44,240 nucleotides of DNA from Escherichia phage NTEC3, in sequence record NC_073318.1; one strand, written 5' to 3'. Every line of letters begins with the position of its first letter. Position 1 is the stretch's first letter. The position numbers and the translations under genes were made by a program. The notes beneath the pieces were generated by a model. That model ran no database searches. It saw only the letters and a list, made by a program, of their open reading frames with translations, and was not told the origin of the DNA. This document shows positions 1-14,748 of this stretch, piece by piece.

Positions 1-513
1 TTAACCCCGGTACACATTAAATGAGAAGCCGTTGTTAAGACCACCACACAGTAACGGGCGTAAGGCGTCGTCAGCGGCGGTAATCGCGGTTGTGGCCCCG
101 CTGTTGCCGTTGTTGAAGTAGGTAACTGTTACCGCACCCTCTACACGCTCGGTCTGCACGGAACGTCCATCGGAGTTAGCCCGAACATCAGTGCCCGCTC
201 CATACGTAACAGCGGCGATTACCTGCGCCCGGATTAACTGCGGTGGGATAACATTATCAGCTACGGTGAAGCCGTTTAGTGTTGTTCCCGTACGTGGGTA
301 CGCCAGGGACTGCTCGGCGGACACACGGCGGCCGCACATCTGCGGTTCTGCAAGCCCGACATAAGTAGCGCCGTTGCGCAAGGCTACTTCGGTGGCCGTA
401 TCGTCTTCCGGTAGCTCAAGGCCATAATTAGCCGCTAACGCGCGGGCGTCGGCCAGGCTAATGTAACTGTCAGCATTAGGGACGATTTCTCCCGTTTCCA
501 CGATTAGCGGCAT
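1..513 (-). CDS. hypothetical virion protein (head completion / head-tail joining candidate)
   Basis: Complete 170 aa ORF; ATG at 513 preceded by GAGGAA; stop at window position 1-3; co-oriented directly downstream of capsid genes; Gly/Thr/Ala-rich. Function from position only. Confidence 0.45.
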   Translation of the reverse strand: MPLIVETGEIVPNADSYISLADARALAANYGLELPEDDTATEVALRNGATYVGLAEPQMCGRRVSAEQSLAYPRTGTTLNGFTVADNVIPPQLIRAQVIAAVTYGAGTDVRANSDGRSVQTERVEGAVTVTYFNNGNSGATTAITAADDALRPLLCGGLNNGFSFNVYRG

Positions 514-516
514 GAA

Positions 517-696
517 TTATTCCTCTGATTTACGGCGACGACGCTTGGCACCACCGCCGTTGTTGTGCGCTTCTTCGTTGTCCGGTTGGGTAGTGACCAG
601 TTCATCCGCGTCTACAACACCGCGAACTGGCATCACCTGCCCATCAACAATATCAACGTGGGTGTACTTTTCGCGGATTACATAATTATCTGCCAT
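517..696 (-). CDS. small hypothetical protein (59 aa, basic C-terminus)
   Basis: ORF below the track cutoff found by hand; ATG at 696 preceded by AAGGA; stop 4 nt before next gene start. Confidence 0.3.
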   Translation of the reverse strand: MADNYVIREKYTHVDIVDGQVMPVRGVVDADELVTTQPDNEEAHNNGGGAKRRRRKSEE

Positions 697-732
697 GACC
701 TTTCCTTATTACGGCCCCGAAGGGCCGTTGTA

Positions 733-1074
733 TTAAGACACAGTTGCTACAGTGCTGCTGGAGATAATATTACCATACACATCGTGAACAACCACTTTAT
801 ACGTGCCTGAATCTGCGCTAGTAGTAGACGCCTTTACATAGGAAGCAGCGTTTGCCCCGGCGATAGCGTTGTTGTTCTTGTACCACTGGTAGGAGTATGG
901 CTCCAGACCGCCAGTTACGGTTACGGTCAGTGTCATAGTTCCCCCTGTGTTTGCTGAGGTAGTACTCGCCAGCGCAGATGAGAAAGACGCGGGGGCGATA
1001 TTTGCCATATCGATTTTAGCGCCTACGGTATCGGCTGAAACACCGGTAATGCGACGTTTGATTACATCAACCAT
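733..1074 (-). CDS. Ig-like domain protein (capsid decoration candidate)
   Basis: 113 aa; C-terminal YxWYKN...SGxYxV pattern typical of Ig-like domains; lies in head module. Confidence 0.5.
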   Translation of the reverse strand: MVDVIKRRITGVSADTVGAKIDMANIAPASFSSALASTTSANTGGTMTLTVTVTGGLEPYSYQWYKNNNAIAGANAASYVKASTTSADSGTYKVVVHDVYGNIISSSTVATVS

Positions 1075-1086
1075 TTTTAAGCTCCT

Positions 1087-1386
1087 TTAGCTTACAGTTC
1101 CTGCGTTTTTAAGCGCAGTCAACAGATTTGCTACGGTAGTGCGCAGCGCGGTAACATCGGTTCGGAGTTTGTTGTACTCCGCTACAATGGCGTCGAACTC
1201 TTCCTTAGTCGGTGCCGCGGCGGACTGCACCCCGGCGGCGGCGGTAATGGCCGCAGGTGCCGCCACAGTAGCTGACTTTTTAACCCCACCAACTACGCTG
1301 GTAGTAGCAGGCGTGACTGGGATATCAAAGTCACCGAAGTCGACATTCTGAAGGCTGCGCGGCAAGCCTTTTCCGGTCTTAGCCAT
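1087..1386 (-). CDS. hypothetical head protein
   Basis: 99 aa ORF immediately downstream of major capsid gene, same strand; Ala-rich. Confidence 0.45.
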   Translation of the reverse strand: MAKTGKGLPRSLQNVDFGDFDIPVTPATTSVVGGVKKSATVAAPAAITAAAGVQSAAAPTKEEFDAIVAEYNKLRTDVTALRTTVANLLTALKNAGTVS

Positions 1387-1445
1387 AATTTACCTCTTAG
1401 TAAATGAAAAGAGGGACCGAAGTCCCTCTCGATTATAGCTTAACC

Positions 1446-2495
1446 TTAAGCACCGACACCAGTTACCAGGAAGGCAATCGGTACGTGCTTGCGGTCAACC
1501 ACACGGTTCCAGTTGGAGGCGTTCGCCAGGTCCTGCCAGGAAGCAGAGCGCGGGGTAGTCTCGGTGCCGTTGCCAGTGATTACTGCACTGGTGAAGCTGT
1601 AACCAAACGGATGTAGCAACCAGGTCTTACGGGTCCACAGGGTTTCAACGCCGCCGCCGTTGCCGCGGGACGCTTCGCGCTCGTATTCCAGCGGGTTGGA
1701 CGGAGAACCTTCACCGTAACCGATAGCGCCGTTGCCGAAGATGATGGAGATGAACTTACGGGTCGGGCCAGTGCCGACTACGGTCATGCTGTCGTCAACA
1801 ATCACGCGGTAGCCCTGGTAGGTGGCGAACATGGTGTTGTTGTCCGCGTCACGGATGAAGTCGATAAGCTGCTGCTTACGTGCCTGCGCATAAACGAAGC
1901 TATGCATCGCGATAGCCCCCAGCACTTCACCGCCGTTGCCCATCAGAGCATCGCCCATAGTCTGGGTAGCGTCGATGAACGCGCCCGCATCGAAGCCCAG
2001 AGTAGCAGACACGTCGATTACCATGTCATTCTGCTCGTGGTATGCGTCGGTAGCGGCTACGTTGTCATTGTACAGCCCGAGCGCGGTAGCAATCAGACGG
2101 CGTTGTGCCTGACGCTGCCAGAAGTTATCCAGACGTGACGCTACGGATTGCAGCGGGTTCTGGCTGGTCAGTTCAACGGTCAAATCCGCCTGACCGAAAC
2201 CTTCGTTCAGGTACGCAACGCGCGCCATCATCTCGCCGGTCTGCACGTTACGCGGGGTGGCGATGTCCTGGTATACGTCGTTCGAGTAGTTCGGCTCGAT
2301 AGAGGTATCAATCGCTTTCCAGAAAGGAATATTAGCGACGTTGGACGGGCCGCGGGCAATCTCGGCAGCGTACGGGGTCGGGGTCAGAATACCAGACTGG
2401 AAGAACGCGGTTTTTTCTACCGGGTCCTCGGTCATATAAGACGCCAGGACCGGGATGTTGCCAGTTACGATATCGCCGATAGTGGTAATTGCCAT
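1446..2495 (-). CDS. major capsid protein (candidate)
   Basis: 349 aa ORF directly after scaffold gene (2 nt gap) in portal - morphogenesis - scaffold - capsid order; assignment by synteny and size. Confidence 0.65.
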   Translation of the reverse strand: MAITTIGDIVTGNIPVLASYMTEDPVEKTAFFQSGILTPTPYAAEIARGPSNVANIPFWKAIDTSIEPNYSNDVYQDIATPRNVQTGEMMARVAYLNEGFGQADLTVELTSQNPLQSVASRLDNFWQRQAQRRLIATALGLYNDNVAATDAYHEQNDMVIDVSATLGFDAGAFIDATQTMGDALMGNGGEVLGAIAMHSFVYAQARKQQLIDFIRDADNNTMFATYQGYRVIVDDSMTVVGTGPTRKFISIIFGNGAIGYGEGSPSNPLEYEREASRGNGGGVETLWTRKTWLLHPFGYSFTSAVITGNGTETTPRSASWQDLANASNWNRVVDRKHVPIAFLVTGVGA

Positions 2496-2497
2496 TA

Positions 2498-3253
2498 TTA
2501 TTTCCTCAGGGCTTTAAGTTGCCGTTCAAATTCGGCAGGGTTCGATTTATACAGGGCTAAACGCTCTGCTTCACTCATGTCTTTAAACGCTGGTGCGGCC
2601 CCGCCGCCTTTGCTACCGGAAGCCCCGCCGCCGGAAGCTGCATTTGCTTTGATCAAATGCGAAAACGCCTTGTGTTCGCGCAGGTATTTGCGGAACTGTT
2701 CCGGGTCAGTCGTGATTACGTTACCGTCTGCGCCGACAAACTTAGTAACCACATCATCACCTTCGAACTCAGTCTTAACGAACGGCGCAAGGATGTCCAC
2801 TGCTTCCGGGGTAATAAAGTCACCCGCGAAAGAGCCTAGCACCGCTTTACGTTCGCTGCCGAGGATGCGCTCTGCCATTTTGGAGATGCGGCCATCTTTC
2901 TCGGCTAACACCGGGTCATACTGGCTACGAATCGTCTTTTCAAACTCGTCCATCTTACCGGCGGCCTTTAACGCCTCCTGGTGCGCACGCTGCCGTTCTT
3001 CTTCGGCCTCTTTTGCTTTACGGGCGGCTTCTTTCTTCTCCGCCAGCAATGCTTCCTGATTGGCCTTAAGCCCGGCAACTTCTTTCTCAATCAGCGCCTG
3101 AACTTCTTCAGCGGTGAACATTTTAGGAGCGTCACCGCCACCAGCTTTATCTTCTGCTCCAGCTTCTTCCTGGAACGGATAACGTAAAAAACGATTCATA
3201 GTCAGTATGTCCCCTGGACGTTGGAATCCGGGCCACCCGGATTTACATGTCAA
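2498..3253 (-). CDS. scaffolding protein (candidate)
   Basis: Highly charged Glu/Lys/Ala-rich helical protein immediately upstream of capsid gene; true start probably the internal Met (MNRFL) near 3199. Confidence 0.55.
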   Translation of the reverse strand: MTCKSGWPGFQRPGDILTMNRFLRYPFQEEAGAEDKAGGGDAPKMFTAEEVQALIEKEVAGLKANQEALLAEKKEAARKAKEAEEERQRAHQEALKAAGKMDEFEKTIRSQYDPVLAEKDGRISKMAERILGSERKAVLGSFAGDFITPEAVDILAPFVKTEFEGDDVVTKFVGADGNVITTDPEQFRKYLREHKAFSHLIKANAASGGGASGSKGGGAAPAFKDMSEAERLALYKSNPAEFERQLKALRK

Positions 3254-3281
3254 GAATAAATTATTCCAACATGCAAGGCAA

Positions 3282-3545
3282 CTATTCCAGAATATTCCTC
3301 ACGTAATCCTGCAACATGAACACTTTCAGTCTCAGTTGCCGTACGCATTCGGCGTTCTGAACGTCGATAGCTAAATCCTCGTCCGCGTCACTACTTGGTG
3401 GCGCCAGCTTGCACGGCGGCTGCATCATCGTCGTATCCGGAGATGGAATTGGCGTTGGCGACGGCGCGGGACTTGAGCTGCACGCGCTCAGGGTCAAAAG
3501 TGCACACGCTGCGACCAGGCGTTTTAATGTACTTAACGACTTCAC
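3282..3545 (-). CDS. o-spanin (Rz1-like outer membrane lipoprotein)
   Basis: Signal peptide with lipobox LSAC, Pro-rich mature part; starts inside the 3391-3777 ORF in another frame and extends past it (overlapped spanin architecture). Confidence 0.55.
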   Translation of the reverse strand: MKSLSTLKRLVAACALLTLSACSSSPAPSPTPIPSPDTTMMQPPCKLAPPSSDADEDLAIDVQNAECVRQLRLKVFMLQDYVRNILE

Positions 3546-3777
3546 GGGTAATCACCTCTGATTTCGTCTTGCCTTCGTTGTCAGCGGCGGCGGCCTTCGA
3601 TTCATCCTGCTGCTGCCGTTGTGTTTTCTTCGCTAACTCAGCCTGTGCTTTCTGCTGTTGCTGCGAAACGAGATTAGCCCGGCCTTCGTTCCATCCGCTG
3701 CGATACTGGTAGATGCCGTGTGCGTAAACCAGGATGATGAAACATGCTCCTGCTACGACAGTTGCTTTAAGATTCAT
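3391..3777 (-). CDS. i-spanin (Rz-like)
   Basis: N-terminal transmembrane segment, then Gln/Ala/Lys-rich coiled-coil-like region; overlaps the lipoprotein ORF; RBS AAAGGGGA before ATG. Confidence 0.55.
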   Translation of the reverse strand: MNLKATVVAGACFIILVYAHGIYQYRSGWNEGRANLVSQQQQKAQAELAKKTQRQQQDESKAAAADNEGKTKSEVITREVVKYIKTPGRSVCTFDPERVQLKSRAVANANSISGYDDDAAAVQAGATK

Positions 3778-4096
3778 GTTTCCCCTTTCTCGATAAGTAA
3801 AGCCCCGCCATAAAGCGGGGCGCTAGTCCTTATCATTTAAACATAGAAACGGCGTAATCTCAGTAAACCAGTTACTTTTTACACAAGCAATAGGGTATGG
3901 CCCTTCCGAACGCGTCAGCGTAACTACACTCAGGACTTACGTCCCGCTCCGTTACCTGCCCGCGCCGCGGTCGCTTGTTCATACTTCACAAGCTCAGGTG
4001 GAGCTTATCATATTTTTAGTGAAAAGTCAACTATTCGAATAGTTTATTCCAACATTTACAATTCGGAGGAATAACTGGAATACGTAAATAAATAGT

Positions 4097-4125
4097 TTGC
4101 ACACCCCAATATAATAGGGTACTAT
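4097..4125 (+). promoter_or_regulatory. class A sigma70-like promoter, TTGCAC-N17-TACTAT, with AATAG-GGTA-CTATT palindrome
   Basis: -35 at 4097-4102, -10 at 4120-4125; 32-bp element identical to the copy at 38905. Confidence 0.55.
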
Positions 4126-4152
4126 TCAGTTAACTTAAACAGGAGGTGAAAA

Positions 4153-4356
4153 ATGTATGCAATTTGCGAAGTAGTTCAAGAGTTCGATGAAGAGTTCGAC
4201 GGTGACTTGTGCCGGGTTAAAAAGGTTCTGCAGGTTTTCCCTGACGCAATGTCTGCTTACAAGGCATTAGATATATTTGAACCTGGAAGATACGGGGATT
4301 ATGACACTGTTCTGAGGGTTGTCCATGAGCAGGATTTAAACACAAGATTCCGTTGA
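4153..4356 (+). CDS. moron-encoded small acidic protein, unknown function
   Basis: 67 aa; strong RBS AGGAGGT 7 nt before ATG; own promoter upstream and terminator downstream; opposite strand to flanking head genes. Confidence 0.6.
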   Translation: MYAICEVVQEFDEEFDGDLCRVKKVLQVFPDAMSAYKALDIFEPGRYGDYDTVLRVVHEQDLNTRFR

Positions 4357-4361
4357 AAACT

Positions 4362-4388
4362 AAGGCCCCATAATGGGGCCTTTTATCA
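4362..4388. terminator. bidirectional intrinsic terminator
   Basis: Hairpin GGCCCC-ATAAT-GGGGCC followed by TTTTAT; on the minus strand followed by TTAGTTTT. Confidence 0.6.
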
Positions 4389-4847
4389 TTCTGGCTTAGT
4401 AACCTTCGCCGCTTTGCTTACCGCCTCTACTCCATCGGCATCAGTAACTTTAACGAAGTATTCGCCGACCGCATTAACCGTCAGAGACAGAGCCTCCTCA
4501 GGCGCATTCACCACTTCCTTACCGTCTTTGTACCAGGTCAGAGAATACGGCGCTTTGCCTGCCTTAACCTCGACAGTGATGGTTGCGCTGCCGCCCGCCA
4601 GTTCAGCGTCCTGCGGTTGCGCAGAGAAATACACGTCGCCAGCGTCCGCCAGATACGGAATTTCATAAAGCATACCGGCGGCGGGCAACGCAATACCGGT
4701 TTTATCTGCAAACGGCATATCATCTACCGGTGTACCGAGTACACTTTCGTCCTCAATAAATACCACGTTCTCGCCAGAGCCAGACACGCGGGCGTACTGG
4801 ACTACGCGACGAGACGGTACGTCAGTTACTTTGAAAAAGCCCATCAT
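4386..4847 (-). CDS. Ig-like domain protein (virion-associated candidate)
   Basis: 153 aa; C-terminal PYSLTWYKDGKEV...GEYFVKVTD Ig-like pattern; start overlaps stop of upstream gene at 4847. Confidence 0.5.
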   Translation of the reverse strand: MMGFFKVTDVPSRRVVQYARVSGSGENVVFIEDESVLGTPVDDMPFADKTGIALPAAGMLYEIPYLADAGDVYFSAQPQDAELAGGSATITVEVKAGKAPYSLTWYKDGKEVVNAPEEALSLTVNAVGEYFVKVTDADGVEAVSKAAKVTKPE

Positions 4848-5890
4848 TATTCCCCTTTCAGATAATCAGCAACACGTTTATCGAGTTCCGCCATCTGCTT
4901 AAGCGTGAGCGGATTCCCGAAACCATCTACAGATATTACGCGAAACTCTTCCGGCGATATACCGCTGTTACGGAAAATCTTACCTCGCACCGGGCCGAGC
5001 GCCTGGTCCTGAAACCATGCTGGTTGTTGTTTCAGGAACTCGTAATATGTTGTGTCCGCGCTTACCTGAGTGCCGCCGTCAGCGCCCTTAGCCGCCCGTT
5101 TTGCGCCTTTATCGAGGAAGTCGAACTCTGAACTGATTACCGGAGCCGTGCACGACCGACAATTCGGATGGGCTGGGGGTGTCGGCCCTTTACCGATTTC
5201 CCACGTCATTCCGTCTCTGGCCCTGCAAATAGCGCTGGTACGGCTATCCAGCGTAGACACCCATTCATATTTCTCGATGATGTCGTCGTTCTGGCGGTAT
5301 GTCTCGTTGCGGGCTTCGTTGGATACGTGAGACAGCGCGGTGCGTATTACTGTAGCTGCGTTACGTTCTGAGATGTCAGCCAGCCCGCCCGCGCCTACGA
5401 CATTCTTAACAATCTGCCGTGTTGTCTGGCCTTGTACAAAGCCCATCTTAACGCCGGTTACAAGACGTGCTACTTCCGTTTCACCCCAGCCGTCCATCAG
5501 CTTAGTGAAATCAACGGGCTTGTCACTCAACGATAATGGCTGAAACTCGGCAGCAGCCCACACCTGTTCAGCGGTAGGTGTAACAAATTCCGCGTCTACG
5601 TTGGCGGTCAGTGTCTTTACGTTCCACTCAGCCTCGTACGCCGCCAGTTCCTTAAGGTCGTCTGTCAGCTTTGTCTGCCAGTCGCCCGTAATCCCTGTCA
5701 GTGCTTCTTCAAGGTCCCGTAACAGTTTATTCAGCCGCGCAGTGCTTCGCCCGTCGTCGCCGAATAACAGCACCTGCCGTTTGATTTCATCCCGCATCTC
5801 CTGAATGAACGGTGTGAGGTCTTTCACCTCACCGGATGCGGTGCGTTGCAGCCATATCTGATGGCTGATGAGGGATGTAAGTAAGCTCAT
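4847..5890 (-). CDS. head morphogenesis protein, Mu F-like / SPP1 gp7-like family
   Basis: 347 aa; position right after portal; STLDSRTSAICRARDGMTW and HPNCRC motifs characteristic of this family. Confidence 0.65.
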   Translation of the reverse strand: MSLLTSLISHQIWLQRTASGEVKDLTPFIQEMRDEIKRQVLLFGDDGRSTARLNKLLRDLEEALTGITGDWQTKLTDDLKELAAYEAEWNVKTLTANVDAEFVTPTAEQVWAAAEFQPLSLSDKPVDFTKLMDGWGETEVARLVTGVKMGFVQGQTTRQIVKNVVGAGGLADISERNAATVIRTALSHVSNEARNETYRQNDDIIEKYEWVSTLDSRTSAICRARDGMTWEIGKGPTPPAHPNCRSCTAPVISSEFDFLDKGAKRAAKGADGGTQVSADTTYYEFLKQQPAWFQDQALGPVRGKIFRNSGISPEEFRVISVDGFGNPLTLKQMAELDKRVADYLKGE

Positions 5891-5933
5891 AGATCAACCC
5901 TGTGGCGCTAAAGTTAATAGCATACTATAAGAA

Positions 5934-5949
5934 AGCCCCTTTCGGGGCT
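5934..5949 (-). terminator. hairpin / attenuator after portal gene
   Basis: AGCCCC-TTTC-GGGGCT stem-loop 10 nt past portal stop; T-rich on minus strand. Confidence 0.35.
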
Positions 5950-5959
5950 ATAGGTGAAC

Positions 5960-7441
5960 TTACTGCTGAGTGGTGTCCTGTTGCTGCGCCGACTGCGGAA
6001 TCTCTCCCGCTACCTGAGCAACAGAACCCAACGGCAGAGGTGCGTCTTCAATAGCGTTCTGAATGTCCTCATCTGTCCAGTCAGTCACACCTGCCTTGCG
6101 CAACGCAGCATAGTAAGCGGTGGCGGGTAGCAGGCCAGCGTTAATATCCGCCATCCACTGAGCGCGGTCCTGAGCTGTCATAGGTTGCAGGAAGAATTCC
6201 ATATTCAGCTTGAACTCAATCTCAGTATCTTCACTAAGCCCAAGCATACCCGCAACCCAGCGCAACGCATCGGTATACGCCATGCTTACATTACGTGCTA
6301 TTGTTGCCATGACTGACGTGTCGGCGCCGCGTTGCAGGCGGGCCGATTCCGCGGTGATTTGCTGCGTCGGGGTGATAAGCTGCGCGCCAATCTGGATGGC
6401 CTGATTCTCTTTATCCAGCATATTCTGTTTGGCGAGGTTAGTTTCCGCCGCCTGAACCAGAAACGCATTTCCGCCGGAGCCGATGTTGTGGCCTGAACGC
6501 GACCCCATGCGTATGCCGTGTGGGTTGGCTTCTTTCCACTGCTCCATGCTCATGTTCTCGCCGGGGGCAATGAACAGTGTCGGTTGACCTACTATAAAGC
6601 TGGCCTCTTCCACATCGGCCGAATTTCTGAAGTGTCCTATATTTAGCTCAGCTAACGGCAGTAAAGGCGCATCGTCTATAGTGGCGTCGTTGTTGCTTGC
6701 GCCAATGAACGTGAACGGGATTTTACCGCGCAACTGTTCGCCGAGTTCCGGGAAGATTTCGATTACTTCATCCTGTGCACCACCTTCGGCATCGAAGCGG
6801 TAGATGCGCTGGCGGTAGCGACCGTCAATCAGGTCAAGGACGCGGTATTGCTCGCCGAATTTTGTTTCAAACTCAGCGCCTGGTTCCGAGTATTCCCATG
6901 CCTCACGCAATACAACCATCGTCACGCGGTTCACTGAACCGATGCGGGTGAGTCTCCAGTTGATAATGTTCTCCGCGGTATAGAATGCGATTACCGGGTT
7001 TAATAATCCCGCGTTCTGCTCTGCCGCCGTTGCTGCGGCTGTTTCCGGGGCGTCCACCAGCAACCCGCCACGGCCTATCGAGTTAATCTCCATCAGCGTA
7101 TCCTGCGCGTGCTGCCACAGCCCGACACCTGAACCGTCAGCGTTGTGCAACAGGTACTCAAGTTCAGGCGGGATAATCTGCTCAGGGTCTTTGCGCATCA
7201 CTGACCCCGTCATCCCCGCCAGCGTGCGTTTGGTGAAATTGTAGCAGATAGCGCCGTTCTCGTATTCTTCCTGTCGCTGTGCTGCGTAGGTCTGGTCAGG
7301 CTCGTTCTTCCCGACGTTGCGCAGATAGCGGATAAGGTCGCCTTCAAGAGCGTGGCGTACCTTCTGCCATTTATCGAAGTGATGCAGCCATTCCCGGTGT
7401 TTTGTCTTAACACCCTGATTCTGACCGTTCATAGTTAACAT
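5960..7441 (-). CDS. portal protein
   Basis: 493 aa ORF immediately downstream of large terminase; size, acidic C-terminus and synteny. Confidence 0.7.
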   Translation of the reverse strand: MLTMNGQNQGVKTKHREWLHHFDKWQKVRHALEGDLIRYLRNVGKNEPDQTYAAQRQEEYENGAICYNFTKRTLAGMTGSVMRKDPEQIIPPELEYLLHNADGSGVGLWQHAQDTLMEINSIGRGGLLVDAPETAAATAAEQNAGLLNPVIAFYTAENIINWRLTRIGSVNRVTMVVLREAWEYSEPGAEFETKFGEQYRVLDLIDGRYRQRIYRFDAEGGAQDEVIEIFPELGEQLRGKIPFTFIGASNNDATIDDAPLLPLAELNIGHFRNSADVEEASFIVGQPTLFIAPGENMSMEQWKEANPHGIRMGSRSGHNIGSGGNAFLVQAAETNLAKQNMLDKENQAIQIGAQLITPTQQITAESARLQRGADTSVMATIARNVSMAYTDALRWVAGMLGLSEDTEIEFKLNMEFFLQPMTAQDRAQWMADINAGLLPATAYYAALRKAGVTDWTDEDIQNAIEDAPLPLGSVAQVAGEIPQSAQQQDTTQQ

Positions 7442-7453
7442 TGAATAATCCTC

Positions 7454-8725
7454 TTAAAGTGCGAAAGTCACCGGGACGTTAATAACTGGTTTGCGAATCG
7501 GCATTTCATACGCGATAGGGTATGTGGTTCCATCATTCTGGTGGTCCACACCGCCTGATTTATCCGGTTCGCCGTTCTTGTCGTAAGCCTGTTGCTCCAG
7601 GCATCGTGCGGTAACAGGGCAAGCCTGTTCATTAATCATGACCATACCAGATTCAAGCGCCTTATTCATCGCCGCTACGCGGTCTTTAACCGGTGGGTTT
7701 GTCGATTTAGCGCGCACTTCGAAGCCGGCCTGCTGTAACTGGGCAATATCAGATGTGCTGGCGTTGTTACTTTTACGGTTTTTACCGCTTGCGTCGGGGT
7801 ACATAACGATATAGTGGCCCTTACTTTTCCAGCGCTCTGTTACGGCTCTCACCACATCGGGCGTATCGAACATATCCACCAACTCGGCGACTGCATGCCA
7901 GACTTTGCCACGTTGCACGTAAACTGTACTAGCCATGTGGCCTACGTTAAAGTCCTGCCCGATATACAGAGTCTCGCCTGGTTTTATTGTTTCGCGGCTG
8001 CTGTTTTTCCTGCGGTCATAGGCGTAATAGACAGTCCCCGCCGTCAGGTTGACGAACTCGCCGTTGATGTAGGCGTCAATCAACTGACCTGGGTATGTGT
8101 CGCGTAACGACTGCACATAATCTTCTGGCAGGAACGGGTTAGACAGGGTGGACGCCTGAATCATCTCGTAGCCTGGATTCTTTTTGACTACCCAGCGGTC
8201 ATGTACGAAACGGAATCCTTCCGGGGTAGTGAACACGGAAACGGTATTAGCAGGTTTCGGTGTAATAGGTTTATATGTCCGCGGCAACTGGCGGTTACGG
8301 GCGATGACTTTGTTCCACGCGTGCTCGGCGTGCTCCATGTTAAGGGTGTCCAACTCGTCGATTTTCGCACGAAACGATTCGTAGCCAACGATTCGTGCTG
8401 GATTATCAAGTGTACGCAGAACAAAATCCCCAAATTGTCCGGAAGACGTATAGATTATGTTGTCAGACTTGTTGTATTTGTACCGGATACCCCAGTCGGT
8501 GAGCTTTTCTTCCATACGCGGTGCAAGGATGAGGCGCACCAGGTCATAAGTCGGCTCATACATGGCGATGATAGAATCGCTACCACCTTCCATGCTGTCG
8601 AGTAGTGCAGAGTTGCACATAACTTCGGATTTACCCGTACCGAAGCCAGCTACGAATGCCGGAAACTTGCAATGCATACCGAGAAACGCGCCTTGCGGCT
8701 CCGTTGCCGTGATATTAACGTTCAC
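7454..8725 (-). CDS. terL: terminase large subunit
   Basis: 423 aa; Walker A GFGTGKS near N-terminus; follows small terminase with an 11 nt overlap. Confidence 0.8.
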   Translation of the reverse strand: MNVNITATEPQGAFLGMHCKFPAFVAGFGTGKSEVMCNSALLDSMEGGSDSIIAMYEPTYDLVRLILAPRMEEKLTDWGIRYKYNKSDNIIYTSSGQFGDFVLRTLDNPARIVGYESFRAKIDELDTLNMEHAEHAWNKVIARNRQLPRTYKPITPKPANTVSVFTTPEGFRFVHDRWVVKKNPGYEMIQASTLSNPFLPEDYVQSLRDTYPGQLIDAYINGEFVNLTAGTVYYAYDRRKNSSRETIKPGETLYIGQDFNVGHMASTVYVQRGKVWHAVAELVDMFDTPDVVRAVTERWKSKGHYIVMYPDASGKNRKSNNASTSDIAQLQQAGFEVRAKSTNPPVKDRVAAMNKALESGMVMINEQACPVTARCLEQQAYDKNGEPDKSGGVDHQNDGTTYPIAYEMPIRKPVINVPVTFAL

Positions 8726-9224
8726 CGGACACCACCTTAATTGTTACTTCGCTGATTGGCTCGTCGCGTACTTCTTCGGCGACAACTGTTTTATTCAGGC
8801 CCAGTTTCGCGGCAGCAAACGTAGCAGAGATGCCCGCGGCCCCCGTTTCAGTGAAGTATGCCTCTTCCAGCGCCTGTGCTGTCTCCCAGGCTTCTGCAAA
8901 TGCGGGAATCTCACGCAGCCAAAGCTTAATAATCGGGATAGTGACTCCGATGTGTAAGGCGAAGCGGGCCAGTGACGGTGGTTTATCCTGAATCAGCGGG
9001 CGTTCGTCACCCTTAGACGTTGGCACAAGCTCCCACGACGTGCGGTCGAAGAACTCGATTAACGCGTCACAGTAGTCCGGGTCCCACAATGCCGCAGAAT
9101 TACGGGATGATTGATAAAGGCTCTGTTTACCGCGCGGTCGTTTACGGCGACGGTTTGCGCTAACAGCTTCTTCATGTGCAGCTTGTACCACCTCTGGCGA
9201 TGGCTGCTTAAGTTTCAGCTTCAT
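8715..9224 (-). CDS. terS: terminase small subunit (candidate)
   Basis: ORF track gives 8715-9263; start more likely ATG at 9224 (MKLKLKQ) with RBS AAGGGGA; basic N-terminus, helix-rich, directly upstream of terL. Confidence 0.55.
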   Translation of the reverse strand: MKLKLKQPSPEVVQAAHEEAVSANRRRKRPRGKQSLYQSSRNSAALWDPDYCDALIEFFDRTSWELVPTSKGDERPLIQDKPPSLARFALHIGVTIPIIKLWLREIPAFAEAWETAQALEEAYFTETGAAGISATFAAAKLGLNKTVVAEEVRDEPISEVTIKVVSGER

Positions 9225-9342: not shown

Positions 9343-9440
9343 GTATCAGTTATATAGGCCGTGGCGTGGCGCTCTTTTACCGTCGTCGCAATGGTCGTTA
9401 GCTACGGCGATAGCCCTGGCGTTTGGTATGATTAGTAGTC

Positions 9441-9659
9441 TCATATATGTTCCAGTGATTCTCTCCAGTCTGTATCTTGGTTCTCTACACACCCGAGGCA
9501 TTGTACTTCTCCATCCTCGCTCGACCATACCCATTCAAGACCCTCGATAATGGGTTCGTACTCGAAGCCGTACACAGCCCCGTCTTCATCCGTGGCAACA
9601 TAGTTTATATTATCCCACACATGAAAATGTTTACCTTTATATTCTATAGTACGACTCAT
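9441..9659 (-). CDS. hypothetical protein
   Basis: 72 aa ORF in minus-strand early block; no recognisable motif. Confidence 0.4.
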   Translation of the reverse strand: MSRTIEYKGKHFHVWDNINYVATDEDGAVYGFEYEPIIEGLEWVWSSEDGEVQCLGCVENQDTDWRESLEHI

Positions 9660-9916
9660 TCCCCGCTCTCCTCTTTAGCAATGCGTTGCTCTGTTTTAGT
9701 GATACCCCGGCGCGTGAATAACACCGGGCTAGTCTTAACGTGCGTCATCAGACGATTGTTATAAATTACGTGGCGCTCACAATCAACGTCTTTACTGTAC
9801 TTAGCAATCGTCATTTCGTTGATACCGGTTTGTCGGCATGTCTCCGCCATCGTACCAAATTCTTTAATCAGGTTAGGAATGCTGGTAATCATCCTAAGAA
9901 ATTCCTCGTTGTCCAC
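9656..9916 (-). CDS. hypothetical protein (possible HTH)
   Basis: 86 aa; start overlaps downstream gene (ATGA-type coupling); TCRQTGINEMTIAKY resembles an HTH turn. Confidence 0.4.
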   Translation of the reverse strand: MDNEEFLRMITSIPNLIKEFGTMAETCRQTGINEMTIAKYSKDVDCERHVIYNNRLMTHVKTSPVLFTRRGITKTEQRIAKEESGE

Positions 9917-10146
9917 ATCGCATTCGGATATTTGTTATCGCGGTCCTGCACCACGGCGACCATGTTACCACGTTGCACCAGGCAGAAGTGACGCTGTTGC
10001 TCGCCGTTGTAACGGCGCCAGATTGCTTCTTCGATTGCTGCGTTGATGTCGCTGAACATTAGTATCTACCCCACAGAAAACCGACCAATAGCCCAATGAA
10101 GTAACTAAGACCAACCAGACTTATAACAACCTCAAGACTCATGCTC

Positions 10147-10344
10147 TCACCCCACTATCTCATCGCCAAGCCACGCCGTTTCTCGTATATCGTCTACTAC
10201 ACACGCAGCGTGCTCGCGGCTAATCGCAAAAATGTAGAAACTGAACTTCTTCCCATCGGCGTCGACGTGGTTAACCGAGTAAGGTTTCCACAGGACGCCA
10301 TCGATAACTACCGGCTCAGGCGTGCTCATCTGGCGCCTCAACAA
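10147..10344 (-). CDS. hypothetical protein
   Basis: 65 aa ORF in early block, overlapping neighbour. Confidence 0.35.
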   Translation of the reverse strand: MLRRQMSTPEPVVIDGVLWKPYSVNHVDADGKKFSFYIFAISREHAACVVDDIRETAWLGDEIVG

Positions 10345-10603
10345 GACAACTCAGCATGTCAGTAATCTCCGTCTCAAGCCGTTTTCCTAACGCCGATTTA
10401 GTGCAGTGTTCGGCCCACTCCCCGGATTGCAACAATCCAATCATATTTTCTATGTCCGCCGTGAGTGTGAGTAACAACTTAAATGCCTCCAGTTGAAACT
10501 CACCGTTAATTGACAATTGTCCGCCTAACGTCTGTTTTTCCGACTCAAGCACCAGAATACGACGCTCAAGTGATGAGATTGTGATTTCAGGCATTGGTAT
10601 CAC
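10316..10603 (-). CDS. hypothetical protein
   Basis: 95 aa ORF, helical/acidic, in early block. Confidence 0.4.
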   Translation of the reverse strand: MIPMPEITISSLERRILVLESEKQTLGGQLSINGEFQLEAFKLLLTLTADIENMIGLLQSGEWAEHCTKSALGKRLETEITDMLSCLVEAPDEHA

Positions 10604-10772
10604 CTTTGTTCAGGTTGAAGCGGTTAATCAGTTCGCGGCGCGTCTCATAAAGCGACTCCACCATTTGCTCGGCTACCGCGATTTTATTATTCAGGACGCA
10701 CATCACGTGGCTAATGTCTACGCCGCCGTTAACGGCCTCTACCATCATCTTTTCATATTCACGGTCAGTCAT
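10587..10772 (-). CDS. hypothetical protein
   Basis: 61 aa ORF overlapping neighbours. Confidence 0.4.
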   Translation of the reverse strand: MTDREYEKMMVEAVNGGVDISHVMCVLNNKIAVAEQMVESLYETRRELINRFNLNKGDTNA

Positions 10773-10922
10773 TTTTACGCTCTCCCCACATGCGGTTGAG
10801 ATACTTGTTCTTGTCCGGCCCCGGGAAACTGTTACGTTTCATAAGTTCCTCTCGTGTCGGGAACGGGGTGTGATTGACTTTACGGCCTACACGTAATGGT
10901 TGGCTTACTTGACCTTGTTCGC

Positions 10923-11114
10923 TCATTTTGTTAACTCCATCAATTTAGCGGCTAACTCTTTCGCTTGTTCTCTGGATAAAAGCAACACCTCTTCGTTAGT
11001 ATGAATACAGATATCACCATCGTCCCATGTGACTATTTCACCAATATCTCCTGCCTTATCCTTAAAGATATAACGGCCGCAGTACAAATCTCTTTCGTAG
11101 TTAAACATGCTCAT
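10923..11114 (-). CDS. hypothetical protein
   Basis: 63 aa ORF. Confidence 0.4.
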   Translation of the reverse strand: MSMFNYERDLYCGRYIFKDKAGDIGEIVTWDDGDICIHTNEEVLLLSREQAKELAAKLMELTK

Positions 11115-11359
11115 TTCTTCTCTCCTGCATAAGCTGCTTTAAGTGTCTGCATCGCGGCGAACCAGAACGCGTCCGCAGGGATGCTATTGCTCAGGTTACT
11201 AACGGCGATGCGTGCCATCAGTTGTGCGTCTTTGAATGCTTCGATGTCTGTGATTTTCATTGGAAATTTACGCATAGCAACCGGGTCATTATCCATAGTC
11301 CATGCGATACATTTGGCTTCAAGTTCCTCGGTTATTGCGATTGTCGGTACGTTACTCAT
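11111..11359 (-). CDS. hypothetical protein
   Basis: 82 aa ORF; first gene after a 180 bp noncoding gap. Confidence 0.4.
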   Translation of the reverse strand: MSNVPTIAITEELEAKCIAWTMDNDPVAMRKFPMKITDIEAFKDAQLMARIAVSNLSNSIPADAFWFAAMQTLKAAYAGEKK

Positions 11360-11440
11360 CTTCTCTACTCCGTTCTCGTTGTCGATGGAGTAAATATAAT
11401 AGGGTCGTAGGTAATAGTCAACTAGTCATTGCAGAAAATA

Positions 11441-11476
11441 GATAAAAAAAATCCCGGCTGGGTCAGGGCCGGGATA
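11441..11476 (-). terminator. intrinsic terminator after endolysin gene
   Basis: Stem ATCCCGGC / GCCGGGAT; minus strand followed by run of 7 T. Confidence 0.6.
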
Positions 11477-11539
11477 AAACTGGAGAGCAGAGGTATGGAA
11501 CAGGAGGTGATTTAAGTATCGTCGGATTAGTCTCAGGTG

Positions 11540-12079
11540 TCAACCTTTCACCGCGCGCCCGATAGCCTCTGCCTCTTGCCACGGTTTACCGTCGAACAGC
11601 GCCAGACGACCGGCAGTACGGCGGCGCAGACCAAGTAACGGTCTGCCGTTCTGGTTGATGAACAGTGTCAGCTTAGCCCGCAGCGTCTCGATGTCACCAG
11701 AACGCAGCGCCTTACCTGTGCCCGTGGTAGCGGCAATCACGCCAGCGCCTGCGTTGTAGACCAGGTCACACACAGCGTCGAACTGTGCCTGTGTCAGTGA
11801 ATGGTGCGCTGCCGCATCAACCGCAGCTACGGCTTTAGCCATATCGCGATTAAGTAACAGGAGGCCTTGTCCTGGAGTGATGGTCTGCCCAGCCTTAACA
11901 TGCGGGCCATAGCTTCCATACCCAATAGTCAGGTACTTCTCATTTGGCGTAGCGCGATACGCAGTTCCTCGGAATCCCTCGAACGCGGCGGTAAAATGCA
12001 ATCCATTATCTGAAATATTTCGAGACACGCTTATGTCCTCCGTATGACAGCCACGCCTGGCGAATCTGACGCAGCGCAA
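11540..12079 (-). CDS. endolysin, GH24 lysozyme (T4 / P22 gp19-like)
   Basis: AAFEGFRGTAYRA...TIGYG and FDAVCDLVYNAGAG motifs match phage lysozymes; true start probably internal (near 12020). Confidence 0.8.
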   Translation of the reverse strand: MRCVRFARRGCHTEDISVSRNISDNGLHFTAAFEGFRGTAYRATPNEKYLTIGYGSYGPHVKAGQTITPGQGLLLLNRDMAKAVAAVDAAAHHSLTQAQFDAVCDLVYNAGAGVIAATTGTGKALRSGDIETLRAKLTLFINQNGRPLLGLRRRTAGRLALFDGKPWQEAEAIGRAVKG

Positions 12080-12278
12080 CTAATGTAATTAACGTCTCAG
12101 GCAGCGTTGGTGACATGCTGCCCTGTAACAGGTGGATACACCCGGCAGCGCAGACAATAGCTGTCAGGATGTATAGCACCCGACCAAACAGTCCGTCGTC
12201 CACGCTGGGATGATATACATTAAACAGCGATGCGCCTCCGATTGCCAGCATACCGCCGAACCAGAATAATTCATTCAT
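12006..12278 (-). CDS. holin-like membrane protein
   Basis: 90 aa, two predicted transmembrane segments; overlaps endolysin start. Confidence 0.45.
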   Translation of the reverse strand: MNELFWFGGMLAIGGASLFNVYHPSVDDGLFGRVLYILTAIVCAAGCIHLLQGSMSPTLPETLITLVALRQIRQAWLSYGGHKRVSKYFR

Positions 12279-12579
12279 CTGTGCCTCCTCGACGTGCGAT
12301 GTATTCTCCGGCGACGATACCGGAGAGACGGGAATAGATGGGCATCCAGAGAATTGCGATGATGAATCCGAGGCCAGCTATCTCGCGCTCTCCGGTAATA
12401 CCGAACCATTGAGCGGCGAGAGGCGCGCCAAATACGGCGCAAGTGAAGCCAGTTGCAATAAAGCAGAATCCGTCGATAGGGCCGGAAATAGCGGACTTAT
12501 GTTGTCGTAGTCCGATTACCCCACCAGCTAGTGCGGCTGCCAGAAGCCAGCCTGTCACTGTTTCAGTAAATTTATCCAA
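12271..12579 (-). CDS. holin-like membrane protein
   Basis: 102 aa, three hydrophobic segments and charged C-terminus; directly upstream of second membrane protein and endolysin. Confidence 0.5.
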   Translation of the reverse strand: MDKFTETVTGWLLAAALAGGVIGLRQHKSAISGPIDGFCFIATGFTCAVFGAPLAAQWFGITGEREIAGLGFIIAILWMPIYSRLSGIVAGEYIARRGGTDE

Positions 12580-12638
12580 GATGAATCCTCCAGGTGCGTA
12601 TTAAGTATGCAGTAACTGGAGGATACCACGGTTAGGAA

Positions 12639-13076
12639 TTATCCTAATAGTTGTTTGGTAATAATCTTGCCGCCGGTGTTGGTGTCGAACTTAGATGCAA
12701 CTGCTACGCCACCATGTGCTGAATACCCACACTCCATAGCCGCCAGTGCATATGACGAGCCAGACCCTACGGCGGCAAAGCCGTCTGCAATTGGAATAAC
12801 AGAACTTAGAGTGCAATCCCAAGATTTGTAGAACTCCACCTTATACAACGTTTCAATGTCTTTAACCCATACCAAAGCAGAGAAATCAAAATCATAATGC
12901 TTAGGCACTAAAATACTATCGTCCTTCACTAAAAGGATACCAGCTTCAGCATTACCCGCTACACCGATAACAGCAAACTCGTTCTCATATATCTTGGTAT
13001 CTGTGTTGTAGATGTGGTCCCCGGCTACTCGGGTGTCACAGGCCATTGTCTTTCCGTCAAACGCGATAGTAGTCAT
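12639..13076 (-). CDS. HslV-like proteasome-type Ntn-hydrolase peptidase
   Basis: 145 aa; N-terminus MTTIAFDG...AGDH mirrors HslV Thr1 region; VIGVAGNAEAG and AAVGSGSSYALAA match HslV GFAG and GSG motifs. Confidence 0.6.
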   Translation of the reverse strand: MTTIAFDGKTMACDTRVAGDHIYNTDTKIYENEFAVIGVAGNAEAGILLVKDDSILVPKHYDFDFSALVWVKDIETLYKVEFYKSWDCTLSSVIPIADGFAAVGSGSSYALAAMECGYSAHGGVAVASKFDTNTGGKIITKQLLG

Positions 13077-13390
13077 TTATGTCTCCAGATGTATTGTCGT
13101 CTCTGTGGTTTCGTCGGAATATCATCGTACCCCAGCGATTTCCAGTAATTAAATAGCCGGTTCGCGATAGCTGCGCGTTCCTTTGTTTTAAACTCACCGA
13201 GATTCACGGCCTTTCCGTTCTGGAATCCACAGGCGTGGATAGCTTTACGCCGTTCTTGTATCTCTGGGTACAGCACGTTACGGCGACGCTTGTGTATACG
13301 TGTCTTCGCTCTCGGTGACAGCGGCGCAAGGCCGCTTCGTTTCAGGATGTCAGTTGCAAGGCTCATTGCGATACTTCTCCAGAATCTCAC
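13073..13390 (-). CDS. hypothetical basic protein, translationally coupled to HslV-like gene
   Basis: 105 aa, Arg/Lys-rich; its stop overlaps the HslV-like start (ATGA). Confidence 0.4.
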   Translation of the reverse strand: MRFWRSIAMSLATDILKRSGLAPLSPRAKTRIHKRRRNVLYPEIQERRKAIHACGFQNGKAVNLGEFKTKERAAIANRLFNYWKSLGYDDIPTKPQRRQYIWRHK

Positions 13391-13646
13391 CTACTCTATC
13401 GTATGCATATTCGTCCGGTATTACGCCGTAACCCAGGTCGTTGTCCAGCTTAACTAACATATCGAGTATATCGTTGAGTTCGGCTTCGAGTTTCGCGTAG
13501 TCTTCGTAACTTACATAACGCCCTTCATGAGAGTCCGGAACAGGCGTTATATCTACCACGCCACTCGCGCAGTCTTCTGTTAAATCGTAGCGTATAACCA
13601 TCACTCCACCCCCTCCACATGTGTAACTGACCCGCAGTTCGCGCAC
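13350..13646 (-). CDS. tandem paralog family member C (acidic small protein)
   Basis: Likely true start MVIRYDL (internal); shares MVxRY N-terminus with the two upstream paralogs. Confidence 0.45.
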   Translation of the reverse strand: MRELRVSYTCGGGGVMVIRYDLTEDCASGVVDITPVPDSHEGRYVSYEDYAKLEAELNDILDMLVKLDNDLGYGVIPDEYAYDRVGEILEKYRNEPCN

Positions 13647-13690
13647 TCGACGTAATCAGGGTACTGGTCTTTGTATTTCTGTAGCTCGGC
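13601..13690. repeat. direct repeat copy 1 (about 90 bp) from tandem gene duplication
   Basis: About 90% identical to 13870-13959 (shared CACATGTGTAACTGACC...CAGTTCGCGCACTCGACGTAATC core). Confidence 0.7.
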
Positions 13691-13915
13691 GTTTACTTCT
13701 GCCAGTCTCGACACAAGCCCTTCTATTTCCTTGTCGGCGTCGGCTAGACGTTCCTGGTAATAGTCGTCCAGTTCCTTATAGCTGTCGTACTCTACATAAT
13801 CGCCGTATGCGTACTCAGCCATCTCAGGCTCTGGCAGGCCCCACGCTTTTACCTCATATCTCTGTACCATTACTCCACCCCTCCCACATGTGTAACTGAC
13901 CCACAGTTCGCGCAC
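13601..13915 (-). CDS. tandem paralog family member B (acidic, C-terminal CxxC)
   Basis: Likely start MVQRYEV; C-terminal ELQKYKDQYPDYVECANCGSVTHVEGVE nearly identical to paralog A. Confidence 0.5.
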   Translation of the reverse strand: MRELWVSYTCGRGGVMVQRYEVKAWGLPEPEMAEYAYGDYVEYDSYKELDDYYQERLADADKEIEGLVSRLAEVNAELQKYKDQYPDYVECANCGSVTHVEGVE

Positions 13916-13959
13916 TCGACGTAATCCGGGAACTGGTCCTTGTATTTCTGTAACTCGGC
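13870..13959. repeat. direct repeat copy 2
   Basis: Matches 13601-13690; encodes the conserved C-termini of paralogs A and B. Confidence 0.7.
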
Positions 13960-14145
13960 TTCAACTTCCAACAGCTTTAGGTCAAGATTCTGGTAGTCCT
14001 CAAACTTAACCCACTTCCCGTGGCGGTCAATGAAATGGTTGTCGGACCCATACTTAGAATATCTCTGTACCATGTTATTTCTCCTGTTTTCCAAGTCGCT
14101 TAGGTGAGCAGATAGCGCGTACCTCTGAATCGTTGGGCTTGTCAC
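13870..14145 (-). CDS. tandem paralog family member A (acidic, C-terminal CxxC)
   Basis: Contains MVQRY...ELQKYKDQFPDYVECANCGSVTHVGGVE. Confidence 0.5.
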   Translation of the reverse strand: MTSPTIQRYALSAHLSDLENRRNNMVQRYSKYGSDNHFIDRHGKWVKFEDYQNLDLKLLEVEAELQKYKDQFPDYVECANCGSVTHVGGVE

Positions 14146-14278
14146 CCTGAAACAGAAAGTGCGCGTTCTCGGCGGCGCGTGCCGCTGACTGGCACGCCTC
14201 CATCGAGTAAAACGTTTCTGATGCCGCCAGGTGCATCTGGCCTGCGGACAGTACCCAGATAAATAAGATGCTGGTCAT
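14075..14278 (-). CDS. small secreted protein (signal peptide, two Cys)
   Basis: 67 aa; hydrophobic N-terminus ILFIWVLSAGQMHLAA followed by polar mature part; overlaps both neighbours. Confidence 0.4.
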   Translation of the reverse strand: MTSILFIWVLSAGQMHLAASETFYSMEACQSAARAAENAHFLFQGDKPNDSEVRAICSPKRLGKQEK

Positions 14279-14748
14279 TTGATTTTCCCGTGGTTGTCGT
14301 GAAACCCATATTTGTTCTCAGCGTCGGCCCTCGCTGCTCTTGCGGCAGAAAGGTCGTCGAAATATCCTAAATGTACATTTTTACCGTTAACCTTTATGGT
14401 CCCTTTCCATTTACCCGCACGCTGGAACCAATACACTCCAGTAACACCTGACCGGTTGTTGGCGGCTAATTTTGTGTTTCTATGGTTTTCGGATGCTGTT
14501 ACTTTCCTAAGATTGCACAAACGATTGTCACTACGGTCGTGATTTATGTGGTCTATTTGCTCCCCTGGGTGAAGTAAATCGTCGGGGTTAAACATGTCCC
14601 ATATTATTCGATGTGCGCGGTACTGCCTCTTTTCGACCTTCAACACAACATAGCCATCCCTATTCTTACACGTTACTTTTGCTGAGGTCTTCTTCCATGA
14701 AAGAATGCCGGTAGTATGGTCATAATCGAATAGTGTGTGCCATTTCAT
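14275..14748 (-). CDS. HNH homing endonuclease with AP2-like DNA-binding domain
   Basis: IDHINHDRSDNRLCNLRKVTASENHRN HNH motif; GVTGVYW...GKWKGTIKVNGKNVHLGYFDD AP2-like segment. Confidence 0.75.
   Translation of the reverse strand: MKWHTLFDYDHTTGILSWKKTSAKVTCKNRDGYVVLKVEKRQYRAHRIIWDMFNPDDLLHPGEQIDHINHDRSDNRLCNLRKVTASENHRNTKLAANNRSGVTGVYWFQRAGKWKGTIKVNGKNVHLGYFDDLSAARAARADAENKYGFHDNHGKIK

Follow-up and report, generated by a model that had tools for sequence, protein, structure and literature searches.

Variable accessory and anti-defence hot spots are well known in phages, for example the P2/P4 hot spots and the early accessory genes of the T7 group. The morons of lambdoid and HK97-like phages are independent promoter-gene-terminator units (PMC3594210), and the promoter-early stem-loops (PeSLs) of T4-like phages are repeated regulatory cassettes composed of an early promoter and a stem-loop (PMC2839356, PMC4122927). 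In the present study, we analyzed a cassette at positions 4097-4388 of the genome of Escherichia phage NTEC3 (NC_073318.1; the whole stretch of 44,240 nucleotides is referred to as the window), which encodes a protein of 67 amino acids (aa) and had been proposed, in an original prediction made from the letters of the window, to be a single-gene moron. The results suggest that this cassette is probably a moron-type accessory expression unit, expressed early by the host RNA polymerase (RNAP), in a hypervariable socket within the head module of a virulent Kagunavirus. As concepts, morons, PeSL-like shuffling and accessory hot spots were already well established, and these results do not overturn current views; the cassette is real, but a fairly ordinary phage accessory unit. 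The additions of the present study are a catalogue of the socket and its cargos, third and fourth copies of the promoter, a shared terminator, and a hypothesis linking a dyad motif to a Cro-like regulator.

Several lines of evidence support this interpretation. First, the position occupied by the cassette is highly polymorphic. The slot was defined as the region from the conserved block ending in ...GGAATAACTGGAATA (4082) to the stop codon of the gene for the Hoc-like decoration protein, and was compared in 43 loci, comprising the window, four GenBank relatives and 38 IMG/VR contigs recovered through the Hoc-like protein. The slot was empty in nine loci, where it consists of 59 nucleotides (nt) containing only a hairpin, without a promoter. 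The open reading frame (ORF) for the 67-aa protein was present in five loci, and other cargo was found in the remaining 29. About 15 unrelated families of other cargo were observed; a 173-aa phrog_3007 protein is carried by 10 of the 43 loci, and further cargos include an N6_N4 DNA methylase (PF01555), a D12 Dam-type methylase (PF02086), a 114-aa lipoprotein (phrog_13472), a 70-aa transmembrane (TM) protein, proteins of 94, 83, 81, 57 and 141/179 aa, and two multi-gene inserts. Each filled slot has a promoter with 0-6 mismatches followed by the 5' untranslated region (5'UTR) GTTAACTTAAACAGGAG, and the same terminator, (T)AAAACTAAGGCCCC-loop-GGGGCCTTTTA, lies directly past the stop codon, with 96% identity over the 375 nt upstream of the ORF whatever the cargo. 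Because the promoter/5'UTR and the terminator are fixed in filled slots, the exchanged segment corresponds almost exactly to the ORF from its ribosome-binding site (RBS) to its stop codon. The original prediction had suggested such a comparison with related phages and had listed absence of the ORF from otherwise conserved regions as an argument against a moron; the absence observed in many of these regions instead supports it. At this fixed position, close relatives carry small accessory genes that differ from each other, among them genes for DNA methyltransferases and membrane proteins, and in this respect the slot resembles the accessory hot spots mentioned above. However, the slot cargos are heterogeneous, and a role in defence or anti-defence has been demonstrated for none of them.

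Megablast searches with positions 3000-6000 and 38300-41300 showed that the window is the complete genome of a Kagunavirus (Guernseyvirinae), a siphovirus of E. coli; over the first region, identity is 100% with phage 590B and 98.7% with SCS92, and over the second it is 100% with SCS92, the genome of which (also 44,240 bp) is collinear with the window. The records of the collinear SCS92, XY2 and EM1 contain no annotated integrase or lysogeny module, and Kagunaviruses are treated as virulent (PMC11990801). Thus, the cassette is moron-type in architecture only. The unit is autonomous, has its own promoter-like element and terminator, is set inside a structural operon between two of its genes, is found in some otherwise collinear relatives but not in others, has a deviant base composition, and has spread horizontally over five unrelated siphovirus groups, consistent with the moron originally proposed. 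Despite these similarities, three differences from classical morons were observed: the phage is virulent, so that neither expression in a prophage state nor lysogenic conversion applies; the promoter, instead of being exclusive to the unit, is one of the repeated early-type promoters of the phage itself; and the site of insertion is a socket that can be reused and accepts many alternative cargos.

Second, the cassette is sharply delimited on both sides (Table 1). It is a compact plus-strand unit between two minus-strand genes of the head module, as had been predicted. The class-A promoter-like element, found where it had been placed, is composed of the -35 hexamer TTGCAC (4097-4102), a 17-nt spacer and the -10 hexamer TACTAT (4120-4125), followed by TCA. 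Compared with the sigma-70 consensus, the -35 hexamer matches at 3/6 positions and the -10 hexamer at 5/6, with a spacer of 17 nt and no extended -10. The TATAAT present in the spacer (4110-4115) was considered as the true -10 hexamer and was rejected; its first T is a C in 13/33 orthologs, and there is no conserved -35 hexamer upstream. The strong RBS of the original description corresponds to AGGAGG at 4141-4146, located 6 nt ahead of the ATG at 4153, and the alignment of five phages with three different cargos places the left boundary of the cargo swap at or past this site. The predicted terminator also withstood analysis. Its hairpin, AAGGCCCC-ATAAT-GGGGCCTT at 4362-4382, starts 5 nt past the stop codon, is followed by the T-tract TTTATCATT, and has a GC-rich stem of 9 bp that folds at -15.8 kcal/mol on the plus strand and at -16.3 kcal/mol on the minus strand, where it closes the convergent Hoc-like gene. 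The cassette ORF has a G+C content of 43%, lower than that of the genome (51%) and of the flanking genes (53-55%).

Table 1. Positions of the cassette, its relatives in the window and the surrounding modules.
Feature	Position	Strand	Basis
Left backbone/insert junction ATTCGGAGGAATAACTGGAATA	4061-4082	+	Empty and filled slots alike to 4082, divergent beyond (43 loci)
Class-A promoter-like element TTGCACACCCCAATATAATAGGGTACTATTCA	4097-4128	+	Repeat and conservation; putative promoter function
Dyad AATAG-GGTA-CTATT, candidate operator over the -10 hexamer	4113-4126	.	Motif enrichment; predicted binding protein
Conserved 5'UTR GTTAACTTAAACAGGAGG with AGGAGG RBS at 4141-4146	4129-4152	+	Alignment, 5 phages with 3 different cargos
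ORF of the 67-aa acidic protein (MYAICEVVQEF...NTRFR)	4153-4356	+	
Bidirectional intrinsic terminator AAGGCCCCATAATGGGGCCTT and T-tract	4362-4388	.	Common to all filled slots; also serves the convergent Hoc-like gene
Rz-like spanin (phrog_2536), flanks the cassette	3391-3777	-	
Hoc-like decoration protein (phrog_3945), flanks the cassette, convergent to it	4386-4847	-	
Second (portal/head-morphogenesis) slot, empty: degenerate promoter 3' half TTAATAGCATACTATAAG and hairpin AAAGCCCCTTTCGGGGCT	5891-5959	+	
Second, identical class-A promoter, heads the tail-module island	38905-38936	+	
Third class-A copy (31/32), heads the leftward small-gene array starting at 16704	16736-16767	-	
Fourth, diverged class-A copy (TTGCACAC...GAATAGGCTACTATTCA), inside the same leftward array	15544-15575	-	
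Tandem pair of dyad/-10 motif copies, immediately upstream of the HTH gene, divergent intergenic region	20162-20237	-	
71-aa Cro/XRE-type helix-turn-helix (HTH) gene, candidate regulator of the dyad promoters	19918-20133	-	PF01381 E=3.9e-13, above cut-off; predicted role
Tail-island terminator, type AAGGCCCC-loop-GGGGCCTT	41200-41219	.	
Head and terminase genes	1-9224	-	Layout from collinear SCS92 record
Leftward array, about 30 small genes plus lysis genes	9346-16704		Layout from collinear SCS92 record
Rightward replication module	16807-28653		Layout from collinear SCS92 record
Tail genes	28682-38797 and 41224-end	-	Layout from collinear SCS92 record
Plus-strand island interrupting the tail genes	38962-41195	+	Layout from collinear SCS92 record

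Third, the unit is mobile as a whole and is not restricted to one position. In Salmonella Jerseyvirus VSt10, an ORF with 63% identity sits between the head-morphogenesis (MuF) and portal genes, together with the same type of promoter (TTGCTTAACCAAATATAATAGGGTACTATTAT); the leader is similar and the terminator nearly identical. The corresponding slot of the window is empty, and a composite of a promoter remnant and a hairpin at 5916-5950 resembles an "empty socket"; the same slot is filled with a class-A promoter and a 78-aa ORF in one IMG/VR contig (L028). The tail-module island (38905-41219) is a third promoter-to-terminator instance, and encodes a 108-aa signal-peptide protein, an exonuclease (phrog_704), an HNH endonuclease and a 76-aa ORF. 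The first gene of this island is variable: it encodes the 108-aa protein (phrog_14165, 38962-39288, with an N-terminal signal peptide) in the window and a 63-aa "superinfection immunity protein" in EM1 (locus L056, 21675-21866). The exonuclease is conserved, and the downstream genes for polynucleotide kinase, deoxynucleoside monophosphate (dNMP) kinase and HNH endonuclease vary. The island had been described as an accessory unit; since it holds this widely conserved exonuclease, it can be called accessory only in part. One type of bidirectional terminator is present at each of the three convergent (+/-) gene junctions of the genome (4362-4382, 28658-28677 and 41200-41219). In addition, the 81-aa slot cargo of one locus (L010) is 77% identical to an ORF of the small-gene array of the window (16220-16516, minus strand). 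The sockets and the small-gene array thus share a gene pool, and this similarity indicates traffic between them.

Fourth, the promoter of the cassette belongs to a repeated family. The 32-mer TTGCACACCCCAATATAATAGGGTACTATTCA is identical at 4097-4128 and 38905-38936 (0 matches expected in 100 shuffles), as had been noted originally; however, the repeat is not limited to this pair, and the copy at 16767-16736 gives three near-identical copies in total, in addition to the diverged copy at 15575-15544. The three near-identical copies match exactly from TTG through TTCA, and their flanks are unrelated. All four class-A copies (4097+, 38905+, 16767- and 15575-) read TTGCACAC...TACTAT with a dyad over the -10 hexamer, and in each of them the -35 (TTGC) and -10 (TACTAT) elements are spaced by exactly 17 nt. 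In a comparison of 33 orthologous slot promoters, hardly any variation was seen at positions 1-4 (TTGC) and 15-32 (ATAATAGGGTACTATTCA), and the variable positions were 5, 6, 7, 9 and 14. The sharing of one promoter by the cassette and the tail island is real, and extends to the type of terminator, but this promoter is not confined to accessory units, as it also heads the main array (16767) and forms part of a seven-site motif family. On the basis of these shared elements, the cassette and the tail-island unit may be co-regulated. At position 4105, the window has C and SCS92 has A, so that the slot copy of SCS92 is one base off its tail-island copy; in EM1, the two copies differ at three positions. 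Thus, the 32/32 identity is specific to this genome and 590B, and is not a property of the genus. Concerted evolution of the promoter copies within one genome was considered as well and is unsupported, in view of the differences of one base in SCS92 and three in EM1.

In evolutionary behaviour, the cassette is closest to the PeSLs, by analogy and not by membership. Repeated sigma-70-like early promoters and stem-loop terminators are observed in both cases (in the window, 3-4 promoter copies and three terminator copies of one type), these motifs border indels and replacements of small ORFan genes, and recombination at short motifs is a likely mechanism of shuffling. In contrast to PeSLs, the elements described here are unrelated in sequence, are present in a 44-kb siphovirus and not a myovirus, amount to 3-4 copies and not dozens, and flank the cargo instead of forming a contiguous composite, except perhaps in the remnant at 5916-5950. 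This likeness raises a second reading, possible but in our opinion distinctly the weaker one, in which the 32-mer and the hairpin are mainly recombination substrates for cassette shuffling and transcription is secondary. The exchange of cargo exactly between the conserved promoter/5'UTR and terminator flanks is consistent with this reading, as are the occurrence of the same flanks at three positions (spanin/Hoc, portal/MuF and tail island) and the "empty" composite of promoter remnant and hairpin. However, the position of the promoter relative to the RBS and the start codon is fixed at all copies, as it would be for promoters, and the promoter copies in one genome show no clear concerted evolution. 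Moreover, a role as recombination substrate is compatible with an expression cassette and does not exclude it.

The dyad within these promoters might explain how they are regulated. The octamer ACTATTCA occurs seven times in the genome, compared with 1.1 expected, and the dyad AATAG-N4-CTATT is represented by seven perfect and four one-mismatch sites in the window, compared with about one expected (11-fold enrichment). The sites, at 4113, 15546, 16738, 20164, 20208, 22508, 26068 and 38921, are all conserved in SCS92, XY2 and EM1, and are found in at least three promoter architectures, either over the -10 hexamer or in the spacer. Two class B promoters on the plus strand, TTGACA-17-TATAGT (22498-22526) and TTGACG-17-TATAGT (26058-26086), are near-consensus, with the dyad between the two hexamers. 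In the orthologous slot promoters, the left half of the dyad falls within the spacer, where sigma-70 does not contact specific bases, and its invariance suggests a bound protein. The dyad has the features of an operator, i.e. a symmetric site over core promoter elements that is found at several promoters, including that of the candidate regulator itself, a 71-aa Cro/XRE-type HTH protein whose gene is core in 486 Guernseyvirinae-like phage records. Taken together, these motif data suggest that the dyad-bearing promoters share a common repressor, and that they might be host-RNAP promoters bearing the operator of the Cro-like protein; the dyad sites and this one gene look like a compact phage regulon. 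As a separate observation, a near-consensus promoter (TTGACT, 17 nt, TATATT) is located at 11413-11440 on the minus strand, past the terminator following the endolysin gene, and a one-mismatch dyad overlaps its -35 hexamer.

The same motif has been interpreted differently in another phage. In fBC-Eco01, a PHIRE annotation lists seven sites, tgAATAGTa-ccTATTat-T (the reverse complement of the motif), as phage-RNAP promoters (PMC9825357; OM272052.1), and if the 32-bp repeat were a promoter of this type or another phage-specific signal, the cassette would be a middle or late unit instead of an early one. The conservation through the spacer, which exceeds the needs of sigma-70, is in line with this label. 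However, no RNA polymerase gene is annotated in the records of SCS92, XY2 or EM1, and the phage-RNAP label is therefore unlikely. Furthermore, the class-A copies keep TTGC and TACTAT at exactly 17 nt, and the variation among the 33 orthologs spares these hexamers. The motif also lies inside two differently built near-consensus sigma-70 promoters, which is better explained by an operator than by a polymerase-specific promoter. Therefore, we regard a phage-specific polymerase signal as very improbable and favor transcription of the cassette by host RNAP.

With respect to its product, the 67-aa ORF is a genuine gene of a small phage-restricted family. Full-length homologs were detected using tblastn in 31 phage records (19 Escherichia, 6 Salmonella and 6 Klebsiella). 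Among the Escherichia phages, 18/19 are Kagunaviruses, including all seven BASEL isolates Bas70-76; the Salmonella phages include Jerseyvirus VSt10 and Cornellvirus Shemara, the Klebsiella phages include Jedunavirus Geezett, and two of the 31 records are phages of about 60 kb (Klebsiella vB_Kpn2-P2 and Escherichia Ec1-ASingh). Identity ranges from 44 to 100% over the Kagunavirus, Jerseyvirus, Cornellvirus, Jedunavirus and 60-kb phages. A further 18 homolog clusters were found in a large protein collection, and when 1.84 billion representatives were searched with a profile, 22 matches were obtained, from which three were discarded as eukaryote-like repeat proteins, leaving about 19 credible families of 63-75 aa or fusions. 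One metagenomic homolog of 130 aa (P0026) has a 63-aa N-terminal extension, which is either an unrelated small-domain fusion or the product of two merged genes. The differences from the VSt10 ORF by codon position are 18/16/39, and this third-position excess shows, at the level of codon comparison, purifying selection on the ORF. A chance reading frame in a purely regulatory or antisense-RNA element might be imagined for an ORF of 67 codons that is antisense in a late operon and has no annotated function. This explanation is effectively refuted by the full-length homologs and the codon pattern, together with the strong RBS, the same-length families and the confident structural model described below.

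The protein has an isoelectric point (pI) of 4.5 and a net charge of -6.4, with 14 D/E against 8 K/R residues. The size and the acidic character given in the original prediction are thus correct, as is the presence of Cys5 and Cys20; however, the cysteine pair is not conserved, as two homologs have F in place of C20, and near-invariance is seen for C5 only. Across 18 homologs, 24 columns are invariant, including a C-terminal F-R. AlphaFold2 predicted a compact model (predicted local distance difference test, pLDDT, 89.7; predicted template modelling score, pTM, 0.71) with the elements β2-12, β17-29, α32-42, α44-47 and β53-58, i.e. a β-hairpin, α, β topology. The absence of a recognisable motif, as first described, was borne out. 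Searches of Pfam, NCBIfam and PADLOC with the protein gave no match, a sequence-profile search of the PDB gave nothing meaningful, Foldseek of the model against the PDB gave a best E of only 0.86, and the BFVD search returned uncharacterised phage proteins only. There was a weak match to PHROG 27256, a 65-aa phage family without annotation (E=4e-4, residues 2-67 against profile positions 4-65), which represents a marginal full-length profile likeness.

The genomic contexts of the homologs would fit an accessory gene that is expressed early. In Geezett and Shemara, the homolog comes first after a sigma-70-like promoter, and in a 46-kb metagenomic phage it is the first gene of an antisense island within the structural module; in vB_Kpn2-P2 and a 72-kb contig (L051), it lies within long small-gene arrays near primase genes. 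The proteins of about 170 aa adjacent to the homologs of Geezett and vB_Kpn2-P2, as well as the 173-aa XY2 cargo, were considered as a conserved partner and rejected, as their sequences look unrelated by inspection.

A third reading concerns the function of the product and of the slot. The protein could be an anti-restriction or anti-defence factor, e.g. an acidic DNA mimic such as Ocr or ArdA, and the slot an anti-defence locus. The BASEL study found that Bas70-76 are highly sensitive to restriction-modification (RM) and variably sensitive to Old (PMC11990801), and all seven isolates carry the ORF, which argues against a general anti-restriction role. In comparison with Ocr/ArdA-like DNA mimics, the protein lacks sequence or fold similarity, as it does to any known inhibitor, and protection from RM is not seen in the published data (PMC11990801; literature only). 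The other cargos, such as the lipoprotein, the TM protein and the clamp-like 173-aa protein, show no common theme either. Thus, we consider an anti-restriction or anti-defence protein rather unlikely, and classical RM systems are probably not the target of the product. Most likely, this compact, acidic, cytoplasmic protein without a catalytic motif would bind a host protein stoichiometrically, either as a takeover target or as a defence factor.

The region preceding the cassette has features of its own. The non-coding interval 3822-4096 (approximately 275 nt) is 96-99% identical across Kagunaviruses with different cargos, which is at least as high as the value for the 3 kb around it in these relatives (92-97%). 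Rfam and tRNA scans of this interval gave no match, and its folding z is only -2.2 and -2.6. A 36-aa minus-strand ORF is annotated within it in one relative. A candidate minus-strand promoter (TTGACT, 17 nt, TGATAAGCT with an extended -10) is located near 4005-4050, faces the spanin, scaffold and major-capsid genes, and would form a divergent pair with the cassette promoter. The adjoining perfect 16-bp palindrome AACTATTCGAATAGTT (4029-4044) is centred near -41.5 of this candidate promoter, and only one further copy, with three mismatches, is present in the genome.

Herein, we propose a mechanism for the acquisition and expression of the cassette in this virulent Kagunavirus. The left end of the socket would consist of a host-RNAP (sigma-70-type) promoter, the 5'UTR and the RBS, and the right end of the bidirectional terminator, with an exchangeable ORF between them. 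Homologous recombination in the promoter/leader of about 75 bp and in the terminator of about 30 bp may swap cargos between phages, and perhaps also among the two or three sockets of a genome. Straight after infection, unmodified host RNAP would transcribe the cassette, and a monocistronic mRNA of about 250 nt would end at the hairpin and thus not extend, as antisense RNA, into the Hoc-like gene. Later, the Cro/XRE-type HTH protein might silence the cassette together with the other dyad-bearing promoters, and this shut-off would avoid collision with late transcription of the minus-strand head and tail operons.

Several points weigh against this mechanism. The cassette promoter was not flagged by a generic sigma-70 scan, because its -35 hexamer matches at only 3/6 positions. 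No mapping of transcription start sites (TSS) is found in the literature for Guernseyvirinae, and the Kagunavirus RNA-seq paper (PMC12645636) yields no usable gene-level assignment. The leftward array under the same promoter also holds holin and endolysin genes further downstream, and the term "early" is derived from context. In addition, no defence phenotype tracks the gene so far, and since the promoter copies in one genome do not consistently co-vary, recombination between sockets of the same genome can be proposed only tentatively.

It may be speculated, with more doubt than confidence, that the Guernseyvirinae sockets are standardised, with an early promoter bearing a Cro-like operator and a bidirectional terminator, placed antisense in late operons, so that any inserted ORF would be switched on directly upon infection and off ahead of late transcription, and that the 67-aa protein founds a new family of immediate-early inhibitors of host or defence factors, moving among such sockets across several siphovirus lineages. 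The 67-aa protein has a confidently predicted small fold without a solved or annotated relative, and its target would be new information. The list of cargos provides a short catalogue of candidate host-interaction genes, and for the insertion of engineered payloads into Kagunaviruses, the slot offers itself as an obvious safe site. The dyad and Cro-like regulon could explain temporal control in a group of phages used for therapy and synthetic biology. The cassette represents a small and clean example of the acquisition and exchange of accessory genes in virulent siphoviruses.

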